Made by a program: the position numbers and the translations under genes
Shown: positions 1,737 through 63,838 of the stretch, in pieces
Numbering within the stretch: position 1 is the first letter of the stretch
How the letters are laid out: every line of letters begins with the position of its first letter
Notes under the pieces: model-generated
Told to the model about the DNA's origin: nothing
What the model saw: the letters and a program-made list of their open reading frames with translations, nothing else
The model's database searches: none
NCBI GenBank assembly: GCA_035938175.1
Contig: DASZHD010000046.1
Span: forward strand, 9,294 to 73,293
DNA: 64,000 bases
Direction: 5' to 3'
Source: Vulcanimicrobiaceae bacterium
GTDB lineage: Bacteria > Vulcanimicrobiota > Vulcanimicrobiia > Vulcanimicrobiales > Vulcanimicrobiaceae

Positions 1737-1846
1737 GCCCCTTCGATTCCTCCGGTGGTTCGATGCGCGAGCACGACGAGTTATGCCCTTCGATTCCTCA
1801 GGGTGCTTCGATACCTCAGCATGACAGGCGATTCCTCACCATGACA
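1737..1846 (-). repeat. 49-nt repeat family, 2-3 degenerate units in reverse orientation
   Basis: cccttcgattcctcagggtgcttcgatacctcagcatgac is the reverse complement of the unit seen at 13784, 20021 and 63595. The flanking copies are degenerate. Confidence 0.8.
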
Positions 1847-1854
1847 AGTGGAGG

Positions 1855-2634
1855 CTATTCGCCCGCTGGAATGATGTACGTCGGCGGCGGAACGACCGGC
1901 TCTCCTACTTCGAGCACGATCCCCTGATGCGCGCGTAGCGGAATTGCGCGCAGATCGCCGTCGTACGGCTGCCCGTTCACAAATGCGGTTACTTTGCCTT
2001 TGAACGGCCCTACTTGATCGCGGCTGAGCGGCTGTCCCCAGATGTCGAAGAACATGCCCACCGTGTACGGACCGCCGTTGGGTGCGTTGACGTCGCCGGC
2101 TTCAATGTGAATGATGCCGCTGGCATCATGCGTGTGCAGCCAGTACAAACAGCTGCCGTTCGGCGAGAGCGGCTGTAGCGCAAAGCCGATATACGGCGGA
2201 ATCTGCAAAGGCGAACCGTCGACCATGATCGCGAGGTGGCTGTGAACGTGCAGTTGGACCGCCTCGGTCGTGGCGCATGGAATGCCGTCGACGAGCTGTC
2301 CGTGTCCGCCGCTTGCGGTGTCGGGCAGAATGCCCTTTTGCGGATTCGGCGTCGGTAATCCGAAAATGGGTTTTCCGACGGGCTGGCCGTTCACGAGCGC
2401 GATCGGTTTGGTCGTCGGCTGCGGTCCCGGCGTCGGCGTGGAATAGTCGAACGCCAGCGCTTTCGCGCGAGTCTGATTCGAAATGAAATTGGATATGCCG
2501 AAGCCGGCGAGCACGAGCACGATCACGATGGCGAACCCGATGTAGATCGGCGTCATGGGATCGCGTTTGGCGGGCGGCGGCGTCGCGCCGCCGCGCGTGG
2601 TTCTGCGGCGCTCTGCGCGGCTTGGCTGGCTCAT
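1855..2634 (-). CDS. membrane-anchored exported protein, HTHD-motif family (paralog of 10047..11087)
   Basis: 259-aa ORF with an N-terminal TM anchor (IYIGFAIVIVLVLAGFGI). The C-terminal domain carries CLYWLHTHDASGIIHIE and FFDIWGQPL..QVGPFKGKVT, matching CFYELHTHDPSGAIHVE and FLALWGIPV..QFGPFNGPIT in the 10047 ORF. Confidence 0.65.
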   Translation of the reverse strand: MSQPSRAERRRTTRGGATPPPAKRDPMTPIYIGFAIVIVLVLAGFGISNFISNQTRAKALAFDYSTPTPGPQPTTKPIALVNGQPVGKPIFGLPTPNPQKGILPDTASGGHGQLVDGIPCATTEAVQLHVHSHLAIMVDGSPLQIPPYIGFALQPLSPNGSCLYWLHTHDASGIIHIEAGDVNAPNGGPYTVGMFFDIWGQPLSRDQVGPFKGKVTAFVNGQPYDGDLRAIPLRAHQGIVLEVGEPVVPPPTYIIPAGE

Positions 2635-6215: not shown

Positions 6216-6722
6216 TTAAGCGAAAGCCGGCGGAGGCCGGGAGAAGAGCCGAAGTGTGTGCGCGGTGGAACGCGAGGGCGCACACGTGTATGGAGCGCGA
6301 GAAGCCTGCCGTGGCGCAGGCGAAAAGACGCCTGTCAGAACTGCGACGATCGCGGCAAACGTTTGCGCGAATGCGAGCAACACGACGCGCACCAGCCAGG
6401 ACGCGAACGCGACCGCAACGGCCGCCGCTAAAAATGAAACGGCGTGAGACTGCTCGCACAGCTCGATGCCGGCAAACCATGCTGCCGCGCCGCCCGTCAT
6501 CGCGAGCAGATGGATCCGCGGCGATTTCCAGCGGCGAACCGCAGCAACGGCGGCCAAAAGCGTGGCGAAGAATGCGAACGACGTGCCGAGCGAGAGCGCG
6601 GCACCGTGCAAGGACCCGGCGAGCGTATGCTCGTTGCCGAACAACAGGACGTGCGCGAGCAGCGCTGCGGGCAATCCCAGCAACGCGGCGTAGCCGAACT
6701 TCCTGATGCTCGTCACTATCAC
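6216..6722 (-). CDS. polytopic membrane protein (hypothetical)
   Basis: 168-aa ORF with about 4 hydrophobic helices. Its start overlaps the stop of the upstream multicopper oxidase by 4 nt, which suggests an operon. Confidence 0.5.
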   Translation of the reverse strand: MIVTSIRKFGYAALLGLPAALLAHVLLFGNEHTLAGSLHGAALSLGTSFAFFATLLAAVAAVRRWKSPRIHLLAMTGGAAAWFAGIELCEQSHAVSFLAAAVAVAFASWLVRVVLLAFAQTFAAIVAVLTGVFSPAPRQASRAPYTCAPSRSTAHTLRLFSRPPPAFA

Positions 6723-8167
6723 GAGCGGTAAACGACCTCGGTTCGCATCCCGTCCATCATATGTATCTCGTTATGGCAATGCAACAGCCACCGTCCGGGC
6801 GGTGAATCCGCCGTAAAATGCCATGTTGCTGTCCCTCCATGCGCCCGCACCAGGGCCGTGTCCTTGGGGAGCGGCCTAAGCAGCGGTTTGCCGTCCACGC
6901 TCGTTAAACGAAAAACATGCCCGTGCAGATGCATCGGATGGTCCATATCCGTCGTGTTCTTGAAATGAATCGTCACGGCGTCGCCGCGTGTGACGAAAAT
7001 CTTCGGGGTGTGCGGATACGTTTTGCCGTTTATCGTCCACGCGTTGCTGCCGTAGGCGCCGCCCCCAAGTGTAAAGTTGTAGTCATGCTGAGGCGTCTTG
7101 TCATGCTGAGGCATCGAAGCACCCTGAGGCATCGAAGGGCCAACTCCCCCCGCCCCCTCGTACGTAAAGAACTCAACGCCTTCCAGGGTTTGCGGGCTCG
7201 CGGCGGGCGCCGCATTTTCGAAGCCCTCGGTATAAACGACGGCCGCCTGCTGATACGCGGTCGGTTCGCTGGAGAGACCTTGCAATAGCCAAGCACCGGG
7301 TTTTTGTACTTCGAACCACGCGTCGTACCGTTCGGCGACGCCTATACGCAACGCATCGACCGTCACGGGCGCTTCAAGACGGTTCCCGTCCGTGTGCGTT
7401 ACGGTCAGACGATGATCGGCCAGACGCACGTAACGCGTCTGCGTCGGGTTCGCATTGAGAACGCGCAAGCGCACGCGCTGTCCGACTTTCACGGGAAGTT
7501 TTTGCGTTGCCGGATACGACCGGCCGTTGATGCAATGCGCGACGTACGCAACTTCGTCGCCCATTTTATCGTTGGGCTCCATCTCGCGCATTTCCGGAGA
7601 ACCGATAGGATCCACCATCGGCGCGCCGCTTACGCCCATCATCGCCTGCTCGATCGTCGGCAAATTCGGCACGTCGTGAAAGACGAGCGCAAACTCCGCG
7701 TCGTAGTGCTCGTCGTTCGGATCTTCCACGACGATCAATCCGAAGAGCCCGCGCGGCAAGCCGCCGCCCACGTGATCGTGATACCAGCGCGTTCCGGCCG
7801 GCTGCGCGACGAAATCGTACAGAAACGAATCGCCGCTGGGCACCGGCGCCTGCGTAATATCTTCAACGCCGTCCATGCGGTTCGGAAGAATCATTCCGTG
7901 CCAGTGAACCGTAGCCGGTTTGCCGCTGGAGTTCACGAATTTCGCGCGCAACCGCTGCCCTTGCGCGACGCGAATGACCGGCCCCGGAATGCTGCCGTTG
8001 AACGCGAGGAGCGGATACTGCATGCCCGGCGCCGGCGAAAATGCAATCGGTGCTGCGGTTAGCGTGTAGTCCAGCGTGTCTTCGGCCAGCGCCCGCGCCG
8101 GCAGCCGCGGTACTGCGAGCGCGGCCATCACGCCCGCACTTCGCGCCAAGAAGACGCTGCGGCGCAT
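6719..8167 (-). CDS. Tat-exported multicopper oxidase
   Basis: All four copper-ligand motifs are present: HWHGM, WYHDHV, HPMHLHGH and HCHNEIHMMDGM. There is a twin-arginine leader (MRRSVFLARSAGVMAALAVP). I place the start at the internal ATG at 8167, where TAATG overlaps the upstream stop by 1 nt. Confidence 0.9.
   Translation of the reverse strand: MRRSVFLARSAGVMAALAVPRLPARALAEDTLDYTLTAAPIAFSPAPGMQYPLLAFNGSIPGPVIRVAQGQRLRAKFVNSSGKPATVHWHGMILPNRMDGVEDITQAPVPSGDSFLYDFVAQPAGTRWYHDHVGGGLPRGLFGLIVVEDPNDEHYDAEFALVFHDVPNLPTIEQAMMGVSGAPMVDPIGSPEMREMEPNDKMGDEVAYVAHCINGRSYPATQKLPVKVGQRVRLRVLNANPTQTRYVRLADHRLTVTHTDGNRLEAPVTVDALRIGVAERYDAWFEVQKPGAWLLQGLSSEPTAYQQAAVVYTEGFENAAPAASPQTLEGVEFFTYEGAGGVGPSMPQGASMPQHDKTPQHDYNFTLGGGAYGSNAWTINGKTYPHTPKIFVTRGDAVTIHFKNTTDMDHPMHLHGHVFRLTSVDGKPLLRPLPKDTALVRAHGGTATWHFTADSPPGRWLLHCHNEIHMMDGMRTEVVYRS
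7082..7142 (+). repeat. 49-nt repeat family copy inside the multicopper oxidase CDS
   Basis: gtcatgctgaggcgtcttgtcatgctgaggcatcgaagcaccctgaggcatcgaagggcc. It is read through in-frame on the minus strand as GPSMPQGASMPQHDKTPQHD. Confidence 0.8.
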
Positions 8168-9984
8168 TATTGCCCGACGTTCAGCGGCACAGTCATGGTT
8201 TGGCCGTCGTACTGAACGCGCACGGTCCACGGACCGCCCATCGAAAACACGACGCGTCCCGTGAACAGATGCGGATCGGAAGCGGATTGCGTGAGCGTCA
8301 CTTCGCGAGTCTGCATCGTGCTCGCACCCATTTGCATGATCGGAAGAACGCTGACGCTCTTCGGCGGAGTTCCTGGGAACCGGATCGATATCGTCGCCAT
8401 GTCGGTCGGCACGGCGGGATCGAACGTTACGACGGGCTTCGTGCCCGCCGAGCCGCCGTCCAAATTCGAGAGATACGTGACGATGCTCGAGACTTGATCG
8501 GTGGTGAAGCCGAAGTTCGGCATCGGCGGCTTAGGATTCACGATTGCATTTGCAATTTGCTCCGCGGTGAGCTTGTGCTCGATTCCGAAGAGCGCCGGAG
8601 CAACGCCGCCGCCGTGCAAACCCGCGCCGTGACAGCCTTCGCATCCGTTTGCCTGCACCAGCTTCGCACCCGCGTCAGCCGAAGCGGCGCCGGTTACGGC
8701 CTGCGGACTCGCCGACGGAACGGGCGCGGCACTTGGATCCGGGGGCGGTGCATTTGCTGCGAGCGTTTGGGCAGACGCCACGTGCAGGTTGGAAAGAAAG
8801 CGGCGGCCGTAGTCATACGGGCCGCCGTACGCCATTTGAAACGCGATCTGCGGACGCTGTCCCGGATATGTTGCCAGTTCGCCGATCAGCGCCAGGTTCG
8901 GTAAGACGTTATGCGCGACGTCCGCGACGACTTGCCGCGTCAGTGTGTCGCTCGAGGCAACGTCGTAGCGGAGTAACAGGTGGTTGCGCCATCCCAAATC
9001 GCGTTCCGCCTCGAAAAAGAATCCGTTCAACGGCACGTCGTACGCGCCGATATCCGGATTCGCGTCTTGCCCGTGATAGTACATCGATTGATAGTGCCAT
9101 GCGTCGGTTTGGTAAGCGAAATAGACGCCTTCGCGCGTGAAGGGCTGGGTGCCCAAGAACGCGCCGCTTGCCGGGTCGTTCAGCGGCGACCATCCGCGCA
9201 TGCCCACGAGCCCGACGCTCCAAGGAATGGACATGCCCCCGTACGACACGTTGAGGTCGATCGCGCGCGGATTGTTGGCCTGGTTGTAATCCAGTGCGTC
9301 GCCCGTGGAGCCGCTGCCCGTTAACCACGACACATTGTACATGAACTCGTTGGACATGCCGTTGAAGGCCGCGCCCCACCGCGCGTCATTGGGATTGAAC
9401 TGATTCTGGCCCGTGGTCTGAGCCGCGAGCAAATACGGGCTAATCGTCCACGCGTGGGCCGGCATAAACGGAAACGGGGTGTGAAATTTGCCGACCTGGA
9501 TCGAATTCGTGCCGTGCAGCAGGCCGTTCCAGGATATCCAGACCTGTTCGGTCTGCCCGATGACGCCGGAATCGATGACGTGCTGTTCGGCGTACCACGT
9601 AAAGTTGCGTCCCAAGAATCCGCCGCCCAGAAGCGAGAGGTCGGAAACCATCGTGCTTCCCGGATGATCTTTGTTTGCGAGGATCGATTGAATGTACAAG
9701 CGCGCTGAAATCGGGAGCGCGCGATCTTGCAGATGCCGGTTCAGGATTTGAAAATTCGACATCATGACCATCATGCCGTAGCGCGTCATTCCCGGAAACG
9801 TCGTGTGACAGGTTTCGCACGAAATGCCTTGCCCGTTGGCAAACACCGGAATAGCATCGGCGCGCTGCGCTGGAATGAATGCGAGAAGTGCGGCGGCGCC
9901 GAGTGCGCGCAGAACCGCAGCGTACGATGGGTGCATGGAGTGCCTCCGCGAGAATTCAGGCGCGTTCGCGTCGTAGGTTTCCAT
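8167..9984 (-). CDS. multidomain c-type cytochrome: N-terminal heme site, beta-barrel-like region, class-I cytochrome c domain, YtkA/FixH-like domain
   Basis: 605 aa. Signal peptide (ALLAFIPAQRADA) with CETCH directly after it. A region of about 380 aa rich in alternating aromatic/Gly strands follows, then a Pro/Ala linker. A second heme site CEGCHG has a downstream PPMP Met ligand region. The C-terminal Ig-like domain has a Met-rich segment (LPIMQMGASTM...GGPWTVRVQYDG). Confidence 0.75.
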   Translation of the reverse strand: METYDANAPEFSRRHSMHPSYAAVLRALGAAALLAFIPAQRADAIPVFANGQGISCETCHTTFPGMTRYGMMVMMSNFQILNRHLQDRALPISARLYIQSILANKDHPGSTMVSDLSLLGGGFLGRNFTWYAEQHVIDSGVIGQTEQVWISWNGLLHGTNSIQVGKFHTPFPFMPAHAWTISPYLLAAQTTGQNQFNPNDARWGAAFNGMSNEFMYNVSWLTGSGSTGDALDYNQANNPRAIDLNVSYGGMSIPWSVGLVGMRGWSPLNDPASGAFLGTQPFTREGVYFAYQTDAWHYQSMYYHGQDANPDIGAYDVPLNGFFFEAERDLGWRNHLLLRYDVASSDTLTRQVVADVAHNVLPNLALIGELATYPGQRPQIAFQMAYGGPYDYGRRFLSNLHVASAQTLAANAPPPDPSAAPVPSASPQAVTGAASADAGAKLVQANGCEGCHGAGLHGGGVAPALFGIEHKLTAEQIANAIVNPKPPMPNFGFTTDQVSSIVTYLSNLDGGSAGTKPVVTFDPAVPTDMATISIRFPGTPPKSVSVLPIMQMGASTMQTREVTLTQSASDPHLFTGRVVFSMGGPWTVRVQYDGQTMTVPLNVGQ

Positions 9985-12961: not shown

Positions 12962-13765
12962 GTGATCGTCGATTTTCACTCCCACACCTGTGAGAGCGAC
13001 GGCACGCTGACACCCGCGGCGCTGTGCGAGTTCATGCGCGAGCGCGGGGTGCGCGTGTTCTCGATTACCGATCACGACACACTCGGCGCGTACGGCACGT
13101 TCGACGTGCCGGCTTCAATGCGCGTGGTGACCGGCATTGAGATAAACACGACGCACGCCGACAGCGAGGTGCACATCCTCGGCTACCGCTTGCCGACGTC
13201 GCACGCGGCGCTGCAAGAAGTGCTCGCTGGCAACCGCGCGGCGCGCCGTTCGCGCGTCGGAAAAATCGTCGCGCAGCTGCGCGAAGCGGGGCACGACATC
13301 TCGATGGCGCACGTGCAAGCCGAAGCCAACGAACGCGCTTCGCTCGGGCGGCCGCACGTCGGAAAGGCGCTAATCCGCCGCGGCATCGCGCCGGACATCG
13401 AAACGGCGTTCCGGAAATTTTTGCGCCGCGGAACGCCCGGATACGTTCCGTCGACGCACATGCGCCCGCACGACGCCATCGCGATCATCAAAGAGGCCGG
13501 CGGCGTACCCGTGCTCGCGCATCCCGGACGCCTGCGAGATTACGACATCATCGACGAGCTCGCGCAAGCCGGCTTGCGCGGATTAGAAGTCTTTTATCCC
13601 ACGCACGAGCCGATGCAAGTTCAGCATTTTCGCGATCGCGCGCACCGCCTCGGCTTGGTGATGACCGCCGGCTCGGATTTTCACGACATCCGCTATCACA
13701 AACGCGGCGTCGGCGTCGAGATCGACGAGGCGGACATTCGCCCTTTTCTGGATCTTGTGGCGTAG
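12962..13765 (+). CDS. PHP-domain phosphoesterase (TrpH/YciV-like)
   Basis: VDFHSHTCESDG at the N-terminus, ITDHDT, AHPGR and GSDFH motifs typical of PHP metal-dependent phosphatases. Confidence 0.85.
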   Translation: MIVDFHSHTCESDGTLTPAALCEFMRERGVRVFSITDHDTLGAYGTFDVPASMRVVTGIEINTTHADSEVHILGYRLPTSHAALQEVLAGNRAARRSRVGKIVAQLREAGHDISMAHVQAEANERASLGRPHVGKALIRRGIAPDIETAFRKFLRRGTPGYVPSTHMRPHDAIAIIKEAGGVPVLAHPGRLRDYDIIDELAQAGLRGLEVFYPTHEPMQVQHFRDRAHRLGLVMTAGSDFHDIRYHKRGVGVEIDEADIRPFLDLVA

Positions 13766-13768
13766 CTT

Positions 13769-13938
13769 GTCATGCTGCCGCGTGTCATGCTGAGGTATCG
13801 AAGCACTCTGAGGAATCGAAGGGCCCCGCATTGTCATGCTGAGGTATCGAAGCACCCTGAGGAATCGAAGGGCCCCGCATTGTCATGCTGAGGCATCGAA
13901 GCACCCTGAGGCAGCGAAGGGCCCCTCTCCCCTCGCAA
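13769..13938 (+). repeat. 49-nt repeat family, tandem array (one partial and three full units)
   Basis: Units start at 13769 (partial), 13784, 13833 and 13882, giving an exact 49-nt period. The consensus is gtcatgctgaggNatcgaagcaccctgaggaatcgaagggccccgcatt. Confidence 0.9.
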
Positions 13939-14087
13939 CCGCGCCCGACGTTTCGCATCCGTGCGAAACGCTGGCCTACTGAATTGAGCGCTTCACCCCA
14001 CATCCGTGTTTAGGCGCTCAATTCAGATGCTTGCGAGGGGAGAGGGGCCCTTCGCTGCCTCAGGGTGCTTCGATGCCTCAGCATGAC
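13882..14087. repeat. perfect 57-bp inverted repeat enclosing a 92-bp double-hairpin core (MITE-like or structured-RNA element)
   Basis: 13882..13938 is the exact reverse complement of 14031..14087. The core holds a 9-bp stem (13949-57 with 13962-70) and a 13-bp stem (13979-91 with 14014-26). Confidence 0.85.
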
Positions 14088-14155
14088 GAGCGATGCTGCA
14101 GCATGACAAGGGGCGGCGAGCCGAGAAGCAAGCGTCCCACAAGGAGACCCAAAGC

Positions 14156-17405: not shown

Positions 17406-18785
<1,380 letters not shown>

Positions 18786-18790
18786 CGCGC

Positions 18791-20014
18791 ATGGCCTACC
18801 GCAGACTGTTCACCAGCGAATCCGTTACCGAAGGGCATCCCGACAAGATCGCGGATCAAATTTCGGACGCCGTATTGGACGCCATTCTCAAAGACGATCC
18901 GAACGGGCGCGTGGCATGCGAGACGTTTGCCATCACCGGGCAAATTCACATCGCGGGCGAGATCACGACGACGACGTACGTCGATATTCCGCGCATCTGT
19001 CGCGAAGTCATTAAAGACATCGGCTATACCAAGTCCGCCGTCGGTTTCGATGCCGAGACGTGCGGCGTCAGCGTTTCGGTCGACGAGCAGTCGCCCGACA
19101 TTGCGATGGGCGTCGACAAGTCGCTGGAAGCCAAGGCCGGCGAACACCCCGACGACAAGTACGAACGCATCGGCGCGGGCGACCAGGGCATGATGTTCGG
19201 CTACGCGTGCCGCGACACCGAAGAATTGATGCCGCTGCCGATCGTCCTTGCGCACAATCTCACGCGTCATCTTTCCGCGGTCCGCAAGAACGGAGACATT
19301 CCGTACCTACGGCCCGACGGCAAGTCGCAGGTGACGGTCGAGTATGAAAACGACAAGCCCGTACGCGTGGAAGCTGTCGTCATTTCGACGCAGCACGATC
19401 CGGATATTCCGCTCGAAACCATTCGCGCGGAGATCACCGAAAAAGTGATCAATCACGTGATTCCGGAATCGCTGCGCGACGAGCGTACGCGCATTTACGT
19501 CAACCCGACCGGCCGCTTCGTCATCGGCGGTCCCAAGGGCGACGCCGGATTGACCGGCCGCAAGATCATTGCCGACACCTACGGCGGCATGGCGCGGCAC
19601 GGCGGCGGCGCGTTTTCGGGCAAGGATCCGACTAAGGTCGATCGTTCGGCCGCGTATGCGGCGCGTCACGTCGCAAAGAACGTCGTCGCCGCGGGACTCG
19701 CGGAGCGGTGCGAAGTGCAGGTTGCGTATGCAATCGGCGTCGCGCATCCGGTGAGCGTGCTCGTGGAAACATTCGGCACCGCGAAACTTCCGGAAGAACA
19801 GATCGCGGAACTCGTCAAGAAAATCTTCGACCTGCGGCCTGCCGCAATTATCGAGCGGCTGGATCTGCGCCGTCCGATTTACCGTCAGACCGCGTCGTAC
19901 GGTCACTTCGGACGGCCGGATTTGGATTTGCCGTGGGAACGCTTGGATAAGGTCGAGGCGTTGCGCACGGCCGCCGGCTTGGACGCGCTGAAAGTTCCGA
20001 GCTTCGCCAAGTAA
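18791..20014 (+). CDS. metK: S-adenosylmethionine synthase
   Basis: [53 protein letters not shown] use the internal ATG at 18791, just after the ahcY stop. Confidence 0.95.
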
Positions 20015-20020
20015 GCTTTC

Positions 20021-20105
20021 GTCATCCCGAGGTATCAGCGTGTCATCCCGAGGTATCCGCTTGTCATCCTGAGGTATCGAAGGACCCTGAGGTATCGAAG
20101 GGACC
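20021..20105 (+). repeat. 49-nt repeat family, divergent copies
   Basis: gtcatcccgaggtatc is repeated three times and ends in ctgaggtatcgaaggaccctgaggtatcgaagggacc, directly after the metK stop. Confidence 0.8.
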
Positions 20106-20235
20106 AACCATCATAAGCAGGGGGCCCGGTGCAACGCATCGGACCCCCTTTTCGTTATCTACAGCAGCAGGCTCACAAACGTGGGTAACATGGGACCGAC
20201 TCCACGGTTCCGCAAAGAAAGATTAAGGAGAACGC

Positions 20236-24014: not shown

Positions 24015-24090
24015 TCCGGATTAGCTCAGTTGGTAGAGCAGCTGACTGTTAATCAGCGGGTCGCTGGTTCGAGTCCAGCATCCGGAGCCA
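24015..24090 (+). tRNA. tRNA-Asn (anticodon GTT)
   Basis: 76 nt. Acceptor stem tccggat/atccgga, D-loop agctcagttggtagagc, anticodon loop ctGTTaa, T-arm ggttcgagtcc, encoded CCA. Confidence 0.95.
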
Positions 24091-27257: not shown

Positions 27258-28255
27258 TGCGAGCATTCGACGCATTCTCAGGAATCGGAGGGTTTCACGA
27301 GGCACTCCGTAGCTCGCGCAATCTCAAAGGCGTTATGGTGCGCGCAGCGGTAGATTCTGATCCCGCATGCAAATTGGTATATCAACGTTCATTCGGTGAA
27401 CACGGCATTTTTTTTAACGATATATTCGACATCGGTATAGGAGACCGTGAGGGTCGCGACTTGGGCGCTGTTGATTTGATAATGGCCGGTTTTCCGTGCC
27501 AACCGTTCGCGAACATTGGGAGGAGGGGCGGGATGGATGACCCTCGGGCGCGGACGTTCCTTCATCTCGTGGACATTCTAAAGACGTATCAACCGAAGTA
27601 TGCCGTGCTAGAGAACGTCCAAAAACTCTCGAGTTTTGACAGTGGCGGAACGTATCGGGCAGTTTTGACCGCTTTAACTGCTGCCGGCTATCACGTGGAG
27701 CCTTTGGATCTTTGTGCGTCGGATTTCGGTGTTCCGCAACAGCGTAGGCGACTGTATTTTGCCTGCGTTCATAAGCGTTTTAGAAAACTACCCTTTAAGC
27801 ATCGGCTTCCTCGGCGCCATGGCCGGTTTCGCACTACGTGGCATCTATTGGAAAAAACTATGCCTGACCAGCATATTGTACCGCCTATGACTAGCCGCAC
27901 CGTTTTCAAGCGGAACACGCGATGGCAAGGTGACTTGCAGATAGATCGTGTGATCGCCCGGCCGATATGCGCCACGATGGGCAAGTGGCATCGTGCAAAT
28001 CAAGACAATTACTACTCCGAATCTTACGTCTTCGGTCCACAACCAACGGGTTGGGGAGGTGGCCGTGATTACAGGCACGGCGAGCCAGTGCGCCGTATAA
28101 CGCCGCTTGAAGGCTTGCGACTCCAAGGGTTTCAAGACGATTTCCTACGCGCATTCGAGGGAATATCAAATACAACGGCCTATCGACTTATCGGGAACGC
28201 CGTAGCGGTCCCCGTAGCGCAATCTGTGCTTGAATGGCTGCTCGCCAATGACTAG
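27257..28255 (+). CDS. DNA (cytosine-5)-methyltransferase (second, shorter)
   Basis: AFDAFSGIGGF, GFPCQPFA, ENV, QQRRRLYF, TPLEGLRLQGFQDDF and LIGNAVAVPV. TAATG start/stop overlap with the upstream methyltransferase. Confidence 0.9.
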   Translation: MRAFDAFSGIGGFHEALRSSRNLKGVMVRAAVDSDPACKLVYQRSFGEHGIFFNDIFDIGIGDREGRDLGAVDLIMAGFPCQPFANIGRRGGMDDPRARTFLHLVDILKTYQPKYAVLENVQKLSSFDSGGTYRAVLTALTAAGYHVEPLDLCASDFGVPQQRRRLYFACVHKRFRKLPFKHRLPRRHGRFRTTWHLLEKTMPDQHIVPPMTSRTVFKRNTRWQGDLQIDRVIARPICATMGKWHRANQDNYYSESYVFGPQPTGWGGGRDYRHGEPVRRITPLEGLRLQGFQDDFLRAFEGISNTTAYRLIGNAVAVPVAQSVLEWLLAND

Positions 28256-49725: not shown

Positions 49726-49738
49726 ACCGGTTACGGCT

Positions 49739-50137
49739 TTACGCCGCTTTCTTTTTGCGTCCGCCTTTTTTGCGGCCGCCCTTTTTGCGTCCGGCCTTCT
49801 TGCGTCCGCCTGCGGATGCTGCTGATTTCTTGCGTCCGCCCTTTTTGCGTCCGGCTTTCTTACGACCGCCCGCGGCTTTCTTGCGTCCGCCCTTCTTGCG
49901 TCCGCCCGTCGATTTCTTGCGTCCGCCTTTCTTGCGTCCGCCGGTCGATTTCTTACGTCCGCCTTTGCGTGCACCGGTCGATTTCTTGCGTCCGCCTTTG
50001 CGTGCGCCCGTCGATTTCTTGCGGCCGCCCGCGGCTTTACGGCCCGCGGATTTCTTACGGCCGCCTTTGCGGCGCCCGCCACGACGTCCCGATGATTCTT
50101 CCATCGTTCCGCCGTTTTGCATCATGTCGGAATCCAT
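49739..50137 (-). CDS. highly basic GGRKK-repeat protein (histone H1 / Hc1 / AlgP-like)
   Basis: 132 aa with a short acidic N-terminus (MDSDMMQNGGTMEESS) followed by about 20 repeats of GGRKK(S/A)(T/A)G. Lys+Arg exceed 40% of residues. The underlying DNA is tandemly repetitive. Confidence 0.7.
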   Translation of the reverse strand: MDSDMMQNGGTMEESSGRRGGRRKGGRKKSAGRKAAGGRKKSTGARKGGRKKSTGARKGGRKKSTGGRKKGGRKKSTGGRKKGGRKKAAGGRKKAGRKKGGRKKSAASAGGRKKAGRKKGGRKKGGRKKKAA

Positions 50138-52502: not shown

Positions 52503-53936
52503 TTGTCAAAGCGTCTAACCGTTATCGGCGCGGGCCTTGCCGGAAGCGAGGCCGCTTGGCAAGCGGCGCTATGCGGCGTTGCCGTCGATCTCTACGAAAT
52601 GCGCCCGCAGAAAAGCGGTCCCGCCCATCACACGGGAAATTTTGCCGAGCTGGTCTGCAGTAATTCATTTCGCGGCGCCGCGCTCGAGAATGCCGTCGGT
52701 TTGTTGAAAGCGGAACTGGAACTTCTCGATTCGCTCGTGATGGCGTCGGCGCGCGATGCCGCGGTGCCGGCCGGCGGCGCCTTGGCGGTGGATCGCGACC
52801 GCTTTTCGCAAGCCGTACAAGCACGAATCGAATCGCAGCCGCTGATCGCGGTGCATCGCGAAGAAGTGCTGACGATTCCGCTCGACCGTCCCGCGATCGT
52901 TGCGTGCGGGCCGCTGCCGAGTACGGAGTTTTTGGGGGAGATTGATGGGGTGTTGGGGAGGGTGGACCCTTCGATGCCTCAGGGTGGTTCGATTCCTCAC
53001 CATGACAAATCGAGGCTGCACTACTACGATGCCGCCTCGCCGATCGTCGCCGCCGATTCGATCGACGAACGTCCCATGTATCGCAAATCGCGATACGAAA
53101 AAGGCGACGGCGACGACTACCTCAATATTCCCCTAACGAAAGAGCAGTATCTTCAACTGCTCGCGGATTTGCGCACGCTGCCGCGGCACGAAACCAAAGC
53201 GTTCGAAGATGCAAAATATTTTGAAGGCTGTCTTCCGATCGAAGAGATGGCCGATCGCGGCGACGACGTGCTGCGCTTCGGACCCATGAAGCCCGTCGGA
53301 CTGCGCGATCCGCGCACCGGAAAAACGCCGTACGCGGTCGTGCAGTTGCGCAAAGAAAACGTCGCGGGCACGGCGTTCAATTTGGTCGGTTTTCAAACTC
53401 GTCTCACCTGGCCGTCGCAAAAGGAAGCGTTCCAAAAACTTCCCGGGTTGGAACGCGCGGAATGGCTGCGCTTGGGCGTTATGCACCGCAACACGTTCAT
53501 CGACTCGCCGCACCTGTTGGGGCCGGACCTGCGTTTGCGCGGAACGCCGTCGCTGTATTTTGCCGGACAGATCACCGGAGCCGAAGGGTACGTCGAGGCC
53601 GCCGCTTGCGGCGCCATGACCGGCATCCACGCCGCGCGCCAAATCCTGGAACTGCCCGCGGTGGAGTTTCCGGATACGAGCGCGTTCGGCGCGATCGTCG
53701 CGCACCTGCAGAACACCCAGACGCCGGACTTTCAGCCCGCAAATGTCACATGGGCGCCGTTTCCGCCGCTTGATCCGCAGACCGTTGCGAGCCTCGGAAA
53801 GCGCCCAGACAAAAAGGTGCGGCGGCGGATGCTTGCGGAACGCTCGCTGGCCGCAATGAACTTATTTGCCCGCGCGTTGAGGAGACATGATGATCGCAAC
53901 CCCTCCCACCACCTACTCGCCGCCCCGGCTCGTTAG
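52503..53936 (+). CDS. trmFO: methylenetetrahydrofolate--tRNA-(uracil-5)-methyltransferase
   Basis: LTVIGAGLAGSEAAWQ (FAD site), ELVCSNSFR, MHRNTFI, YFAGQITGAEGYVE. It contains an in-frame repeat-derived insertion (see findings). Confidence 0.9.
   Translation: MSKRLTVIGAGLAGSEAAWQAALCGVAVDLYEMRPQKSGPAHHTGNFAELVCSNSFRGAALENAVGLLKAELELLDSLVMASARDAAVPAGGALAVDRDRFSQAVQARIESQPLIAVHREEVLTIPLDRPAIVACGPLPSTEFLGEIDGVLGRVDPSMPQGGSIPHHDKSRLHYYDAASPIVAADSIDERPMYRKSRYEKGDGDDYLNIPLTKEQYLQLLADLRTLPRHETKAFEDAKYFEGCLPIEEMADRGDDVLRFGPMKPVGLRDPRTGKTPYAVVQLRKENVAGTAFNLVGFQTRLTWPSQKEAFQKLPGLERAEWLRLGVMHRNTFIDSPHLLGPDLRLRGTPSLYFAGQITGAEGYVEAAACGAMTGIHAARQILELPAVEFPDTSAFGAIVAHLQNTQTPDFQPANVTWAPFPPLDPQTVASLGKRPDKKVRRRMLAERSLAAMNLFARALRRHDDRNPSHHLLAAPAR
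52967..53006 (-). repeat. 49-nt repeat family copy inside trmFO
   Basis: cccttcgatgcctcagggtggttcgattcctcaccatgac (reverse orientation), read through in-frame as PSMPQGGSIPHHD. Confidence 0.8.
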
Positions 53937-55200
53937 CCGCGCCGCAAACGTCGTCGAACCGAAGGGAGCCGGCCACGTGCTGGTTCAGGTTCAGGTGAAC
54001 GCGGACGGTTCGTTCAAAGTCTTGCGCGTCATCCGTTCCAGCAATCCGGCCGACAATGCAGCCGCCCTGGACATCGCTTCGCATTCCAAGTACGCACCGG
54101 CGTTGAAAAACGGCGCGCCCGTCCGCTCGCTCTTCGATTTCGACGTCGTGTTCGGTCAAGAAGCGGTCAGCGGAGCGGCAGCGCAGATCGCCGCAATGCT
54201 GCACAAGAACGATTTCAACGGCGCCAAAGCGGCGGCTGAATCGGCGCTGACGCAAAATTCGAACAACCAGCTCGTGCAGGCGCAGCTCGGCGTTGCCGAC
54301 GCATTCTTGCACGACATCAGCGGAGCGGTTGCGGCATTCGACAAAGCCGGAACGATTCCGGAGATGTATCAAAACGTTGCGATGCAAGCGTATTCGCTCA
54401 ACGCCACGTCCCTTGCCGGCACGCAGCCGCAAGTCGCGCTCGCGCAAGCGCAAAGGGCCGTTTCGCTGAACGGTGACTACGGCGCCTACTATGCGCTCGG
54501 CGTTGCGCAGCAGGCTAACAAAAACAGCACGGCCGCATTGAGCGCGCTGGAGAAGGCCGAAAGCATGGCGCAAGGCGCGCATCCGCCCGCCGATGCCTCG
54601 AGTATGGCCAACATTTATCAAGCCATGCTTACCGCGGCGCAGGCGTCCGGCGACAAAGCGACCGTCGATCGCGTTTCTGCTCAAATCAACAAGTTGGATC
54701 CCGCGGCCGGCGGCAAGACGCTTGCTTACAATCTCGATTCGCAGGCAGCGGCAAAAGAACAGCAGCGCGATTTCTCCGCAGCCGTGGCTCTCTACGAAAA
54801 AGCCGCTCAAGCCTCTCCGCAATGGGCCGGTCCGCCCGAATACACGAAGGCCGCGATCGTCCTCGCAACCGAATCGCTGCCGAACTATCCCGCGGCGCGG
54901 ATCGAGGCCGAAAAAGCGATCGCCATAAATCCGAACTACGCGCCCGCGTATTATGTCAGTGCGGTGGCTATGGGGCAGGACGCGCTCGGCAACGGAAACA
55001 TGGACGAACTGCAGCGCGCCACGGACAATGCCTACAAGGCTGCCGATCTCGCTCAAAAAGTGGGAGACACGCAACTTGCTACGTCGGCACGATACTTTGC
55101 CAAGAACCATCAGCTCGATCAAAACCTGCAACAGTGGTCCACCGGCCTATCCACCAACTCGCGATACATGTCGAACAACGGGTACCAGCCCAACACGTAA
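53887..55200 (+). CDS. TonB-C-terminal-like domain + TPR-like repeat protein, no recognisable signal or anchor
   Basis: The N-terminal ~90 aa (GAGHVLVQVQVNADGSFKVLRVIRSSNPADNAAALDIASHSKYAPALKNGAPV) match the TonB_C pattern. The remainder is Ala-rich helical repeats. GAGGAG RBS before the ATG. Confidence 0.7.
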   Translation: MMIATPPTTYSPPRLVSRAANVVEPKGAGHVLVQVQVNADGSFKVLRVIRSSNPADNAAALDIASHSKYAPALKNGAPVRSLFDFDVVFGQEAVSGAAAQIAAMLHKNDFNGAKAAAESALTQNSNNQLVQAQLGVADAFLHDISGAVAAFDKAGTIPEMYQNVAMQAYSLNATSLAGTQPQVALAQAQRAVSLNGDYGAYYALGVAQQANKNSTAALSALEKAESMAQGAHPPADASSMANIYQAMLTAAQASGDKATVDRVSAQINKLDPAAGGKTLAYNLDSQAAAKEQQRDFSAAVALYEKAAQASPQWAGPPEYTKAAIVLATESLPNYPAARIEAEKAIAINPNYAPAYYVSAVAMGQDALGNGNMDELQRATDNAYKAADLAQKVGDTQLATSARYFAKNHQLDQNLQQWSTGLSTNSRYMSNNGYQPNT

Positions 55201-55225: not shown

Positions 55226-56536
55226 ATGATGCTTGCCGCGCCTCCCCCGAGTTTCATCGCCCCCAAAGTTCTTAGCCGCGGTCCGAGCGTCGTCGAACCT
55301 CACGGCGCCGGACGCGTACTGGTTCAAGTTCAAGTCAACGCCGATGGTTCGTTTAAAGTGTTGCGTGTCGAACGCTCGACGAACAACGGCGACAATGCAG
55401 CGGCAATGGACGTCGCGGCGCATTCGACGTATTCACCCGGTATTCGCAACGGAAAACCGGTGGCGTCGATCCTGGATTTTCAAATCGTGTTCGGCGATCA
55501 AGCCGTTAGCGGGTCCGCCTCGAAAATCGACACGCTCTTGCACGATAACGACTTCGCAGCAGCCAAGGCTGCCGCGGAGGCCGCTCTGGCGCAGAGCCCC
55601 GAAAACCATTTGGTGCAAGCGCAACTCGGCGTAGCCGATGCATTTATGCACGACATTGCCGGTGCAGTGGCCGCATTCGATCGCGCCGGCTCGATACCGG
55701 ATGCATACACGGACGTTGCAATGCAGGCGTATGCAATGCATTCGCTTTCCATCGCCGGCACGCAGCCGCGGACAGCATACGTAGAAGCGCAGCACGCGAT
55801 GTCGCTGGGCGGCGATTATCGCGCATATTACGCGCTCGGCGTTGCGGAACAAGCCAACAAAGACAATTCAAGCGCCCTGGGCGATTTACGCAAAGCGCAA
55901 ACGCTGGCACAGGGCGCCAATCCGCCGCCCGATCAGCAAACGCTGGCGGGCATCGACCAGGCGTTGCTCTCCGCCGCGCAAACCGCCGGCGACAAAGCCA
56001 CGGCGGACCGCGTCAGCGCGGACATCGCCAAGATGGATCCGGGCGGGGCGGGGCGTACGGCCGCGTACAACTTCGACGTCCAGGGTTCGCAGGCGGCCTC
56101 GCGTCACGATTACACCGGCGCGGTCGCGTTCTACGAAAAAGGGGCAGCCGCCGCACCCGACTGGGCGGGACCGGTAGAGTATACGAAGGCGGCGATCATC
56201 TTGGCGACCGAACCGCTTCCGAACTATCAGGCGGCGCGCCTCGAAGCGGAAAAAGCAATAAACGCCAACGACCAGTATGCGCTTGCTTACTATGTCGATG
56301 CTGTCGCAATGGGGCAGGACGCACTCGGCAGCGGGAATATGGACGAGCTGTCGCGCGCCACGGACAGCGCGTACAAAGCGTCGACGCTGGCCCAAAAGGC
56401 CGGGGATGCAAAGCTCGCCGCGTCGGCCGCATACTTCGCGAAGTACCATCAGGTCGACATGAACCTGCAGGTCTGGTCCACCGGGCTTTCCATTAACCCG
56501 CGGTACTCAAATCAGATGCACACCCCCAACCAATAG
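55226..56536 (+). CDS. TonB-C-terminal-like domain + TPR-like repeat protein (tandem paralog)
   Basis: Collinear with the 53887 ORF along its whole length and of equal length (436 vs 437 aa). Example: GAGRVLVQVQVNADGSFKVLRVERSTNNGDNAAAMDVAAHSTYSPGIRNGKPV. Confidence 0.7.
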   Translation: MMLAAPPPSFIAPKVLSRGPSVVEPHGAGRVLVQVQVNADGSFKVLRVERSTNNGDNAAAMDVAAHSTYSPGIRNGKPVASILDFQIVFGDQAVSGSASKIDTLLHDNDFAAAKAAAEAALAQSPENHLVQAQLGVADAFMHDIAGAVAAFDRAGSIPDAYTDVAMQAYAMHSLSIAGTQPRTAYVEAQHAMSLGGDYRAYYALGVAEQANKDNSSALGDLRKAQTLAQGANPPPDQQTLAGIDQALLSAAQTAGDKATADRVSADIAKMDPGGAGRTAAYNFDVQGSQAASRHDYTGAVAFYEKGAAAAPDWAGPVEYTKAAIILATEPLPNYQAARLEAEKAINANDQYALAYYVDAVAMGQDALGSGNMDELSRATDSAYKASTLAQKAGDAKLAASAAYFAKYHQVDMNLQVWSTGLSINPRYSNQMHTPNQ

Positions 56537-62169: not shown

Positions 62170-63591
62170 ATGATTCAGCTCACGCCGCGCGCCATCGTTG
62201 CCGAGCTCGATAAGTACATCGTCGGCCAGGCAAACGCAAAACGTGCCGTAGCCATCGCCATGCGCAACCGGTATCGCCGCGAAAATGTGCGCGAAGACTT
62301 GCGGGCCGAGATCATTCCGAAGAACATTTTGATGATCGGGCCTACCGGCGTTGGCAAAACCGAGATCGCGCGCCGCTTGGCCGCGCTCTCCGGCGCCCCG
62401 TTCGTGAAAGTCGAGGCTACGAAATATACCGAGGTCGGCTACGTTGGCCGCGACGTCGAGTCGATGGTTCGCGACTTGGTCGAACACGCGGTGCGCATGG
62501 TCACCGACGAACGCCGTGAAGAAGTGAAAGATCTCGCGGAGAAAATGGCAGTGGATCGTATCATCGATCTGCTTCATCCCGAGACGCGTCCGCCCGCGCC
62601 TCCGGGACAGCAGAATCCGTTTGCGGCGACGCTGGGATCGATCTTCGGCGGTCAATACGCGCAACAGCAACAGCAGCAGGCGCCGCCGCCACCGCCACAG
62701 AGTCCCGACACGGCTCGCGTGCGCGATCAAGCGCGGGCAGACGTCGAGCGCGGATTCTACGACGTGCGCCTGGTCGAAATCGAGACCGAAGAAGCGCCGA
62801 ACGTTCCGATCGGCGTTATCGGCGGCGGGTTCGATCAGGGCGGCGGCGTTGGAGACATCGGTGAAATGCTCGGCGGGATCTTGCCGAAGAAGCACATTAA
62901 AAAGCGGGTGACGGTGCAAGAAGCCCGCCGAATTTTCGCGCAGGAAGAAGCCAACAAACTGATCGACATGGATGCGGTCAAGCGCGAAGCGTTGCGGCGC
63001 GCGGGCGAAAACGGCATCATCTTCATCGACGAGATCGACAAAGTCGCGGGAAGAGAAGGCGGCCGCGGCCCCGACGTCTCGCGCGAAGGCGTGCAGCGCG
63101 ATATCCTGCCGATTGTCGAAGGCAGCACGGTCAACACCAAATACGGCACGATCAAAACCGATCATATCTTGTTCATCGCGGCCGGCGCATTTCACATCAG
63201 CAAACCGTCGGACCTGATTCCCGAACTGCAGGGCCGCTTCCCGATACGCGTGGAGCTCGATTCGCTGACGGCAGAAGACTTCAAAACGATTCTTACACAG
63301 CCGAAGAACGCGCTAACCGAGCAGTATAAAGCGCTGCTTGCCACCGAAAACGTGACGCTGGACTTTCAGCCGGACGGCATCGAGCAGCTCGCGCAATTCG
63401 CGATGCAAGTCAACGAGCAGAGCGAGAACATCGGCGCGCGACGGCTGCATACGGTGCTCGAGCGGCTTCTGGACGAGGTGAGCTTCGGAGCGCCCGAGCA
63501 AGGGGGAACTGTGGTCATCGACGCCGCGTACGTCAAGCAGAAGCTGCAAGACGTGGTCACGAACGCGGACTTGAGCAGTTACATTTTATAA
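62170..63591 (+). CDS. hslU: ATP-dependent protease ATPase subunit HslU
   Basis: [27 protein letters not shown], Walker [50 protein letters not shown] use the ATG at 62170; the ORF-track start lies inside hslV. Confidence 0.95.
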
Positions 63592-63594
63592 TCT

Positions 63595-63830
63595 TGTCAT
63601 GCTGAGGAATCGAAGCACCCTGAGGAATCGAAGGGCCACGCATTGTCATGCTGAGGAATCGAAGCACCCTGAGGAATCGAAGGGTAACGTATTGTCATGC
63701 TGAGGCATCGAAGCACCCTGAGGAATCGAAGAGTCACGCCGTTGTCATGCTGAGGCATCGAAGCACCCTGAGGAATCGAAGGGTCACGCGTCGTCATGGT
63801 GAGGTATCGAACCACGCCGAGGCATCGAGG
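63595..63830 (+). repeat. 49-nt repeat family, tandem array of five units
   Basis: Units start at 63595, 63644, 63693, 63744 and 63793 (period 49-51 nt). The last unit is degenerate. The array begins 4 nt after the hslU stop. Confidence 0.9.
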
Positions 63831-63838
63831 CGATTTGG

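Follow-up and report, generated by a model that had tools for sequence, protein, structure and literature searches.

Repetitive extragenic palindromes (REPs) have been divided into GTAG- and CGTC-tagged superfamilies, with published stems of 5-13 bp in the GTAG type and 8-9 bp in the CGTC type (Di Nocera et al., 2013; PMC3733652), and REPINs have been described together with RAYT transposases (PMC3116915). The former study also describes REPs near the 3' ends of open reading frames (ORFs), G-T pairs in REP stems, and REPs inserted in frame within genes, where dimers code for 20-30 residues. Recurrent host genes are those for replication and repair and for RNA-binding proteins, e.g., tRNA-modifying enzymes, and in one case the recB genes of two Xanthomonas species had different REPs at nearly the same position (PMC3733652). 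The Rickettsia palindromic elements (RPEs; Ogata et al., 2000) are, according to the passages devoted to them in two papers (PMC10969869, PMC3733652), selfish repeats that occur in frame in many unrelated housekeeping genes, at positions compatible with the protein fold, and their host proteins apparently stay functional. Here we analyze a stretch of 64,000 nucleotides from a Vulcanimicrobiaceae bacterium (contig DASZHD010000046.1, positions 9,294 to 73,293), hereafter called the window, in which the housekeeping gene trmFO contains an in-frame copy of a short, interspersed hairpin repeat.

The repeat is abundant in this Eremiobacterota (Baltobacteraceae-like) genome. We consider it probable that the trmFO segment is a copy of a modular, REP-like repeat, and that recurrent insertions have been filtered for freedom from stop codons, a length that is a multiple of three, and a position in a disordered loop. 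A sequence-only reading of the DNA had suggested a small REP- or MITE-like (miniature inverted-repeat transposable element) insertion element filtered for translatability, which is still the best explanation. It also knew of no description of the element; this holds for the sequence family, judged by literature string searches and Rfam, and does not hold for the phenomenon, which is of a known kind (in-frame REPs and RPEs; PMC3733652, PMC10969869). What is new is the family, the phylum and the recurrent colonization, in two orientations, of two TrmFO loops.

The repeat copy in trmFO and its family

Two genes in the window carry the repeat within their coding sequence.

52503..53936, plus strand: trmFO host gene, intact; a 63-sequence alignment shows no variation at C52 (VCSNS motif) or at C243 (FEGCLP motif)
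52965..53008, minus strand: two-hairpin repeat unit within trmFO; its GTCA-first orientation, on the minus strand, is GTCATGGTGAGGAATCGAACCACCCTGAGGCATCGAAGGGTC
6719..8230, minus strand: multicopper oxidase gene with three domains (Cu-oxidase domains 3, 1 and 2), host of the second in-frame copy
7082..7141, plus strand: partial head (GTCATGCTGAGGCGTCTT) and full consensus unit in the oxidase gene, reverse relative to the gene

TrmFO is the 477-residue product of the ORF at 52503..53936, which matches Pfam GIDA over its full length (E=4.8e-88) and TrmFO of T. thermophilus (PDB 3G5Q) with E=1.5e-114. Around the repeat the protein reads ...GRVDPSMPQGGSIPHHDKSRLHYYDAASP..., and a longer excerpt with the repeat-coded part is ...IDGVLGRVDPSMPQGGSIPHHDKSRLHYYDAASP.... 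Read in frame on the plus strand, the copy gives D155-PSMPQGGSIPHH-D168 (DNA 52965-53006), and the peptide of the insert segment is VDPSMPQGGSIPHHDK. The site had been placed correctly at 52967-53006 by the sequence-only reading; the unit itself is slightly wider (52965-53008). The 39-mer 52968-53006 has three further matches in the window at up to three mismatches, and none was found in 100 shuffles. Its assignment to the interspersed repeat was confirmed with an nhmmer profile built from the 12 other copies in the window. With the trmFO copy left out, this profile gave a full-length minus-strand match at 53008-52965 (52.5 bits, E=2e-15). Because the identical TrmFO protein is found on contigs of two separate metagenome samples, the insert is not an assembly artefact. 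It comprises about 48 nt, i.e., about one array period (the unit and part of the spacer), in reverse orientation and in frame R0.

On the sense strand, the copy contains GGTGGTTCGATTCCTCACCA (52980-53002, plus strand), which superficially resembles a tRNA T-arm (GGTTCGAxTCC) and sits in the gene of an enzyme that methylates U54 in the T-loop. As a T-arm mimic it was rejected. The likeness is judged a coincidence, since the flanks fail to pair as a T-arm stem and TTCGAT is common to the whole family.

Alignment of the window TrmFO with 3G5Q shows about 16 extra residues between the helix ending in ..ALKR and ..LAYYDAASPIV. Orthologues were represented by the 120 closest database homologues, all from Eremiobacterota and 70-80% identical. 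In 42 of them (empty sites), and likewise in T. thermophilus TrmFO, the conserved D of 'ID' and the R of 'RLHYYD' lie 5-6 residues apart, as compared to 22 in the window. In a neighbor-joining ordering computed with the variable loops masked, the nearest relatives of the window protein, P0108 and P0115, have an empty site (..SLVRPR.. and ..RIVGTR..), while P0002 has an unrecognizable filling of 16 residues. The segment thus is not shared by orthologues, with P0108 and P0115 empty and other relatives carrying different family members. The original reading of the segment as inserted in frame into a housekeeping gene that is otherwise intact is supported.

An AlphaFold2 model based on 63 aligned sequences (mean pLDDT 76, pTM 0.78) places the insert between helix 141-154 and strand 175-183. 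Residues 155-170 form a coil, and residues 161-178 have a pLDDT below 50. According to the model, the insert is in a disordered surface loop, which answers positively a question raised by the sequence-only reading. An intervening sequence that is taken out at the RNA or protein level is hardly credible as an explanation of the segment. Apart from its mention in the sequence-only reading, no result spoke for it. The insert has just 42-48 nt, and it keeps the frame and lacks stops, for which there would be no need in an excised segment. No Rfam family matched, introns included, and decayed versions are kept in orthologues as ordinary coding sequence.

The window has 13 full repeat units at seven sites, of which five are extragenic and two are intragenic (trmFO and the oxidase gene). 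The unit, GTCATGCTGAGGnATCGAAGCAC-CCTGAGGnATCGAAGGGC, is 42 nt long and consists of two modules, stem(4)-GAGGnATCGA-stem(4), with GTCA before the first. The general plan of a module is a 5' GTCA tag (mostly after T), a variable complementary 4-bp stem, and a conserved loop GAG(G/C)...(T)CGA. Modules are 22-25 nt long, and arrays in the window have a 49-nt period. Every copy begins with GTCA, and CGTC precedes the head in one window copy only (63789). Related Eremiobacterota/Vulcanimicrobiota genomes, for which the source records name Candidatus Cybelea and Baltobacteraceae, carry one- and two-module relatives, e.g., GTCATCCTGAGCGGAGTCGAAGGAC and GTCATCCTGAGCTTGTCGAAGGG. Single units have no terminal inverted repeats, and there is no duplication beside the trmFO or oxidase copies.

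The stems occur as TGCT/AGCA, TCCT/AGGA, TGGT/ACCA, CCCT/AGGG, CCCC/GGGG and TCCC/GGGA, and with a G-T wobble as TCCT/AGGG. Candidates for covariation analysis were chosen by the GTCA tag and the loop anchors alone, independent of complementarity, and loop-trimmed sequences were used. Double-sided changes were present at all four stem positions. The covariation score was 0.449, as compared to 0.253 ± 0.044 in shuffles, with none of 500 shuffles reaching 0.449. It was also higher than in slid controls keeping four or three pairs; the +3 slide, which keeps one pair, scored 0.497. The minimum-free-energy fold of the forward strand consists of exactly the two hairpins. Each stem has four contiguous Watson-Crick or G-T pairs, or seven if tandem G-A/A-G pairs and one G-C pair are counted as a possible extension. 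Hairpin 1 of the trmFO copy has the stem variant TGGT/ACCA. This stem subfamily is also found extragenically, at 63793-63832 in the window and in two fetched loci (L085 1079, L090 368).

In a search of the window with Rfam, no family covered the repeat, and the sole match above the gathering score was a tRNA (24015-24087). Literature string searches with the DNA core and the peptides LRQAQDD, SFDKLRMT, HPERSEGS and VILSLSKD gave unrelated primer matches only. A protein-database search with a window-specific peptide (PSxPQGASxPQHD x4, 64 aa) produced 72 word-sharing candidates, none with E<=10, and an exact-match scan for a 34-mer, in a set of metagenome contigs that lacks the source contig, returned only eight short contigs. 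The family appears to be undescribed. A weak profile match at 27267-27293 (E=0.36) was taken as chance.

Six-frame translation of the 13 copies gave four open frames, with stops only in F1 and R2, so the idea that only one frame lacks stops had to be abandoned. The open-frame peptides are PSxPQGASxPQHD (R0), ALRxLRVLRxLSMT (R1), VMLRxRSTLRxRRA (F0) and CHAExSKHPExSKG (F2). Across 7082-7141 the oxidase protein reads GPSMPQGASMPQHDKTPQHD, and the orientation relative to the gene and the frame are indeed the same as for the trmFO copy. The oxidase segment is missing from the closest homologues (59-60% identical) and is located in a variable linker ahead of the third Cu-oxidase domain. Because four frames are open, the sharing of one frame by trmFO and the oxidase gene is about a one-in-four coincidence and not significant alone.

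Recurrent occupancy of the TrmFO loops

The same loop contains repeat-family peptides in all four open frames and both orientations among the 120 TrmFO orthologues. Examples are LRQAQDD, RQAHHD and SIPHDD for R0, SSFD..AQDD and SFDTLRMT for R1, VILSLSKD and VIPSLSRE for F0, and CHPERSAAGAESKD, EVSNHPELVEG and EVSNDPDLVAG for F2. By a conservative motif count, the loop is filled with a recognizable repeat peptide in at least 39 of the 120 (R0 23, F2 8, F0 3, R1 3, hybrids 2). Judged by their sequences, many of the other fillings resemble decayed copies. At the DNA level, the orientation is forward in L092, L093, L094 and L013, and reverse in L095, L096 and L097. The L093 insert (orthologue P0009) reads GTCATGGTGAGGTATCGAACCACCCTGAGCTTGTCGAAGGGG; its first hairpin is TGGT/ACCA, like that of the window copy, and its orientation is opposite. 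L095 has three partial units with a 24-nt period, and L098, the sister of L097, has an empty loop. Any frame or orientation specificity implied by the sequence-only reading is thus not supported, either by the peptides or by the DNA.

The insertion points vary by 0-3 codons inside the loop, and this agrees better with tolerance of the loop than with a fixed nucleotide as target. The presence of both orientations, all open frames and shifted insertion points argues for a selective filter acting on many independent events, and against both a frame-directed mechanism and a single ancestral insertion. Had the TrmFO loop received a single ancient insertion in an ancestor among the Eremiobacterota, and had this insert then diverged, been partly deleted and been homogenized with the extragenic copies of each genome, the many unrecognizable fillings that resemble decayed copies would be expected, and many occurrences must indeed be inherited since R0-type LRQAQDD is common to whole sub-clades. 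However, an insert of 24-48 nt is hard to invert in place, and both orientations are found at the DNA level. Empty and filled loops are interleaved across the tree, also within the sister pairs P0025/P0047 and P0051/P0118, the insertion points lie 0-3 codons apart, and each insert matches a lineage-specific repeat variant. A single origin is therefore quite unlikely.

The explanation by recurrent, filtered insertion would involve the following steps. REP-like hairpins would be mobile or otherwise copied around the genome, and copies would now and then land in coding sequence. Mobilization may be transposition-like, with the hairpin in single-stranded form, a model put forward for REPs and RAYT transposases. 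In trmFO, the coding sequence would have received a reversed copy of about 48 nt, close to the period of the arrays. This copy probably survived because its length is divisible by three, because it was read in one of the four stop-free frames, giving a disorder-friendly peptide rich in Pro, Ser, Gly and Gln, and because the surface loop tolerates extra residues. Such inserts would presumably be selectively near-neutral. Independent insertions that recurred and passed through this filter, probably along with losses, would explain why two TrmFO loops contain different family members, in either orientation, across the phylum.

The second of these loops follows PANVTW..PFPPL.

53775..53807, plus strand: second variable TrmFO loop, in which PQTVASLGKRP of the window is additional to the sequence of empty orthologues (..PPLDREIRDKK..)

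Orthologues have LRQAQDD, SFDCAQDD, VMLSLGK and VTLSRSK at this position (L004 11237-11256, L013 1113-1140, L096 10037-10126), and from its sequence PQTVASLGKRP of the window may be an old, decayed repeat insert. In a third variable loop of the orthologues (..FE-x-YF..), indels were found and no repeat-like inserts. Occupancy was also compared with that of the adjacent gene topA in the same clade, where 1-2 repeat-like inserts were found in 120 orthologues (78-89% identical). The near absence of inserts from topA indicates that the TrmFO loops are real hot spots. The excess over topA could reflect target preference or benefit. The topA inserts are short (APSTSSGQA, STGSGQASSTDSGQAQ), occur in one or two of the orthologues P0271-P0390 at alignment blocks 473-479 and 513-525, and by sequence look like translations of another variant of the repeat superfamily.

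Target preference would mean that the insertion machinery recognizes a DNA feature of the trmFO region, such as a GTC or GTCA site or local secondary structure. Empty sites usually have a GTC Val codon where forward copies start with GTCA, and the empty second site of L093 already reads GATGTCAT, from which filled relatives extend (...DDVTLS...). The excess over topA and the ..FE-x-YF.. loop, variable by indels yet devoid of repeat-like inserts, point in the same direction. On the other hand, the site of insertion shifts by as much as three codons, copies occur in both orientations, GTC codons are very common in a genome with 59% G+C, and no clean junctions were available. Targeted insertion is therefore considered unlikely.

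Benefit would require that the insert is kept as useful, either as an RNA element in the trmFO mRNA that affects stability, pausing or regulation, or as a loop that alters TrmFO interactions. The occupancy of at least 39 of 120 TrmFO loops versus 1-2 of 120 topA genes in the same genomes would fit, as would the recurrence of replication/repair genes and genes for RNA-binding (tRNA-modifying) proteins among REP hosts (PMC3733652). The trmFO copy also retains stem complementarity through paired TGGT/ACCA changes. Since the TGGT/ACCA subfamily already exists outside genes (63793, L085, L090), however, the paired changes in trmFO are not an in-place compensatory change. Furthermore, 42 of the 120 orthologues do well with an empty loop, and the peptides are wholly different between frames and orientations. 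The mRNA of the reversed copy is the complement of the GTCA-first strand, in which the G-T and G-A pairs are lost and the two hairpins are not formed. Retention for a useful function is very unlikely in view of these data.

A doubtful but possible variant is that Eremiobacterota have an undescribed class of minimal GTCA-tagged hairpins of about 24 nt that insert and excise seamlessly at a high rate and prefer certain sequence or structural contexts. Particular protein loops, such as the two in TrmFO, would then alternate between an empty and a filled state across lineages and perhaps within populations, and the hot spot in TrmFO would be due to target preference of the mechanism, or to a benefit, more than to tolerance. 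If true, the elements would be an ongoing generator of new loop peptides.

Several results weigh against recurrent insertion of a mobile, hairpin-forming element. A tblastn search with E. coli RayT against the window and the fetched loci (1.48 Mb from many genomes, about 0.49 Mb of it from Eremiobacterota) gave no match below E=3, which is a weak test, and no transposase was linked to the element in the DNA searched. Neither a target-site duplication nor a clean junction between empty and filled alleles could be defined at the TrmFO loci, and in the L097/L098 pair the differences exceed a simple insertion. Pure loop tolerance does not quantitatively predict the TrmFO excess over topA. Finally, the stability of the hairpins is unremarkable (z = 0.2-0.7 relative to shuffles), and because it is no better than in shuffles, the hairpin structure is deduced solely from covariation.

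Extragenic copies and neighboring features

The five extragenic sites of the window are the following.

1739..1847, minus strand: one full unit and partial units, directly downstream of the stop codon of the ORF 1855..2634 (minus strand), in the same sense
13767..13923, plus strand: three-unit array with a 49-nt period, starting just past the stop codon of the PHP-domain gene 12962..13765
14047..14109, minus strand: inverted partner copy, forming a REPIN-like composite with 13882-13938
20019..20103, plus strand: two partial heads and one full unit (TCCT/AGGA stem), 5 nt past the metK stop codon (18767..20014)
63594..63832, plus strand: five-unit array with a period of 49-50 nt, 3 nt past the stop codon of an AAA-ATPase gene ending at 63591; the last unit has TGGT/ACCA

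Extragenic copies start 3-55 nt past a stop codon, with the GTCA end first and oriented like the gene upstream of them. This arrangement just after the stop codon was seen at about 15 loci, as compared to three in the reverse sense, with the flanking genes checked by Pfam and JGI gene calls. Scans for terminators and promoters around the arrays gave counts not above those of shuffles. After the copies near metK, a G+C-rich hairpin followed by TTTT was spotted by eye at 20105-20150 (GGGGGCCCGG...CGGACCCCCTTTT); it is absent from the consensus terminator scan because its loop exceeds 8 nt. If this hairpin and T-run are the likely terminator, the repeat would lie in the 3' untranslated region, between stop codon and terminator.

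Over 57 nt, the segment 13882-13938 is perfectly repeated in inverted form at 14031-14087, and the two arms flank another palindrome at about 13975-14030 (CTGAATTGAGCGC...GCGCTCAATTCAG), a REPIN/MITE-like arrangement between the PHP-domain gene and an M16 peptidase gene. The start of the longest ORF of the peptidase (ATG 14093) falls inside the element copy at 14047-14109. Its true start probably is GTG 14157, before a signal-peptide-like sequence, and such repeats are able to produce false N-terminal 'intragenic' calls. Apparent intragenic copies in fetched loci (L015 6057, L017 806 and 11766, L009 13467, L087 2880) were not counted, as they concern doubtful ORFs or uncertain N-termini.

Two other repetitive features lie near trmFO. 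Downstream are adjacent paralogous TonB_C-domain genes, with DNA segments (54768-55167 and 56107-56506) that are about 73% identical, pointing to a tandem gene duplication on sequence grounds. Just upstream of topA, at 49730-50080, there are dense direct repeats with periods of 15, 21 and 36 nt (TTTCTTGCGTCCGCC...), which on the minus strand code for a highly basic GGRKK-type repeat protein; the JGI gene call at this position has 144 residues and no Pfam match.

Implications and comparison with described repeats

The data indicate that selfish hairpin repeats are actively decorating housekeeping proteins in Eremiobacterota, a soil phylum that is little studied and for the most part uncultured. 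Such decoration is best known from Rickettsia RPEs and is sporadic with REPs. The TrmFO loop can be regarded as a natural experiment, with repeated colonization in all open frames and empty alleles as controls, which helps to separate the filter of selection from preferences of the insertion mechanism. In practical terms, the repeats lead to inflated ORF calls at either end of genes, and 'hypervariable loops' made by repeats could pass for adaptive variation in alignments of proteins from metagenome-assembled genomes.

Like RPEs, the trmFO copy is an in-frame insert in an intact housekeeping gene at what appears from the alignment and the model to be a tolerant position (Cys52 and Cys243 kept, coil with pLDDT <50). 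As far as the accounts of RPEs that we drew on go, classic RPEs are about 100-150 bp long and carry a conserved peptide in a single frame, RPE-4 and RPE-6 are shorter and have the CGTC tag, and all are confined to Rickettsia. In contrast, the elements of the window family measure 24-48 nt, occur mostly outside genes, and are read in four frames and in either orientation. MITEs have a length of 70-300 bp, terminal inverted repeats of 15-30 bp and target-site duplications, which the family does not match; only the composite at 13882-14087 has inverted arms, of 57 nt. The SDR1-8 elements of Nostoc and Anabaena, on which Elhai et al. reportedly published in Genome Research in 2008, are said to be dispersed elements of 21-27 nt with a conserved predicted hairpin backed by compensatory changes. 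They are reportedly nested or in tandem, often embedded in other repeats and occasionally in coding sequence. Their hosts are cyanobacteria, the likeness to the window family is by description only, and we know of no report of a strict position after stop codons for SDRs.

The closest resemblance is to REPs. Both consist of stem-loop units of 20-40 nt with a conserved tetranucleotide at one end, reach high copy numbers, and occur in clusters and inverted dimers. Both are located between unidirectional or convergent genes near the upstream stop codon, within about 20 nt for REPs and at 3-55 nt for the window family. G-T pairs are found in the stems of both, suggesting that the transcribed strand matters. 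A minority of copies lies in frame within genes and codes for about 10-30 residues, in the window family at two of seven sites and in many TrmFO orthologues. Unlike REPs, the window family has the tag GTCA (or TGTCA) rather than GTAG or CGTC, and stems of four pairs as opposed to the 5-13 published. Its loop is conserved and its stem variable, it often forms head-to-tail arrays whose period is fixed at 49 nt, and its host phylum, Eremiobacterota, lies outside the REP survey (PMC3733652). The window family thus works like a REP, yet by tag and stem length it is filed in neither of the two tagged superfamilies.

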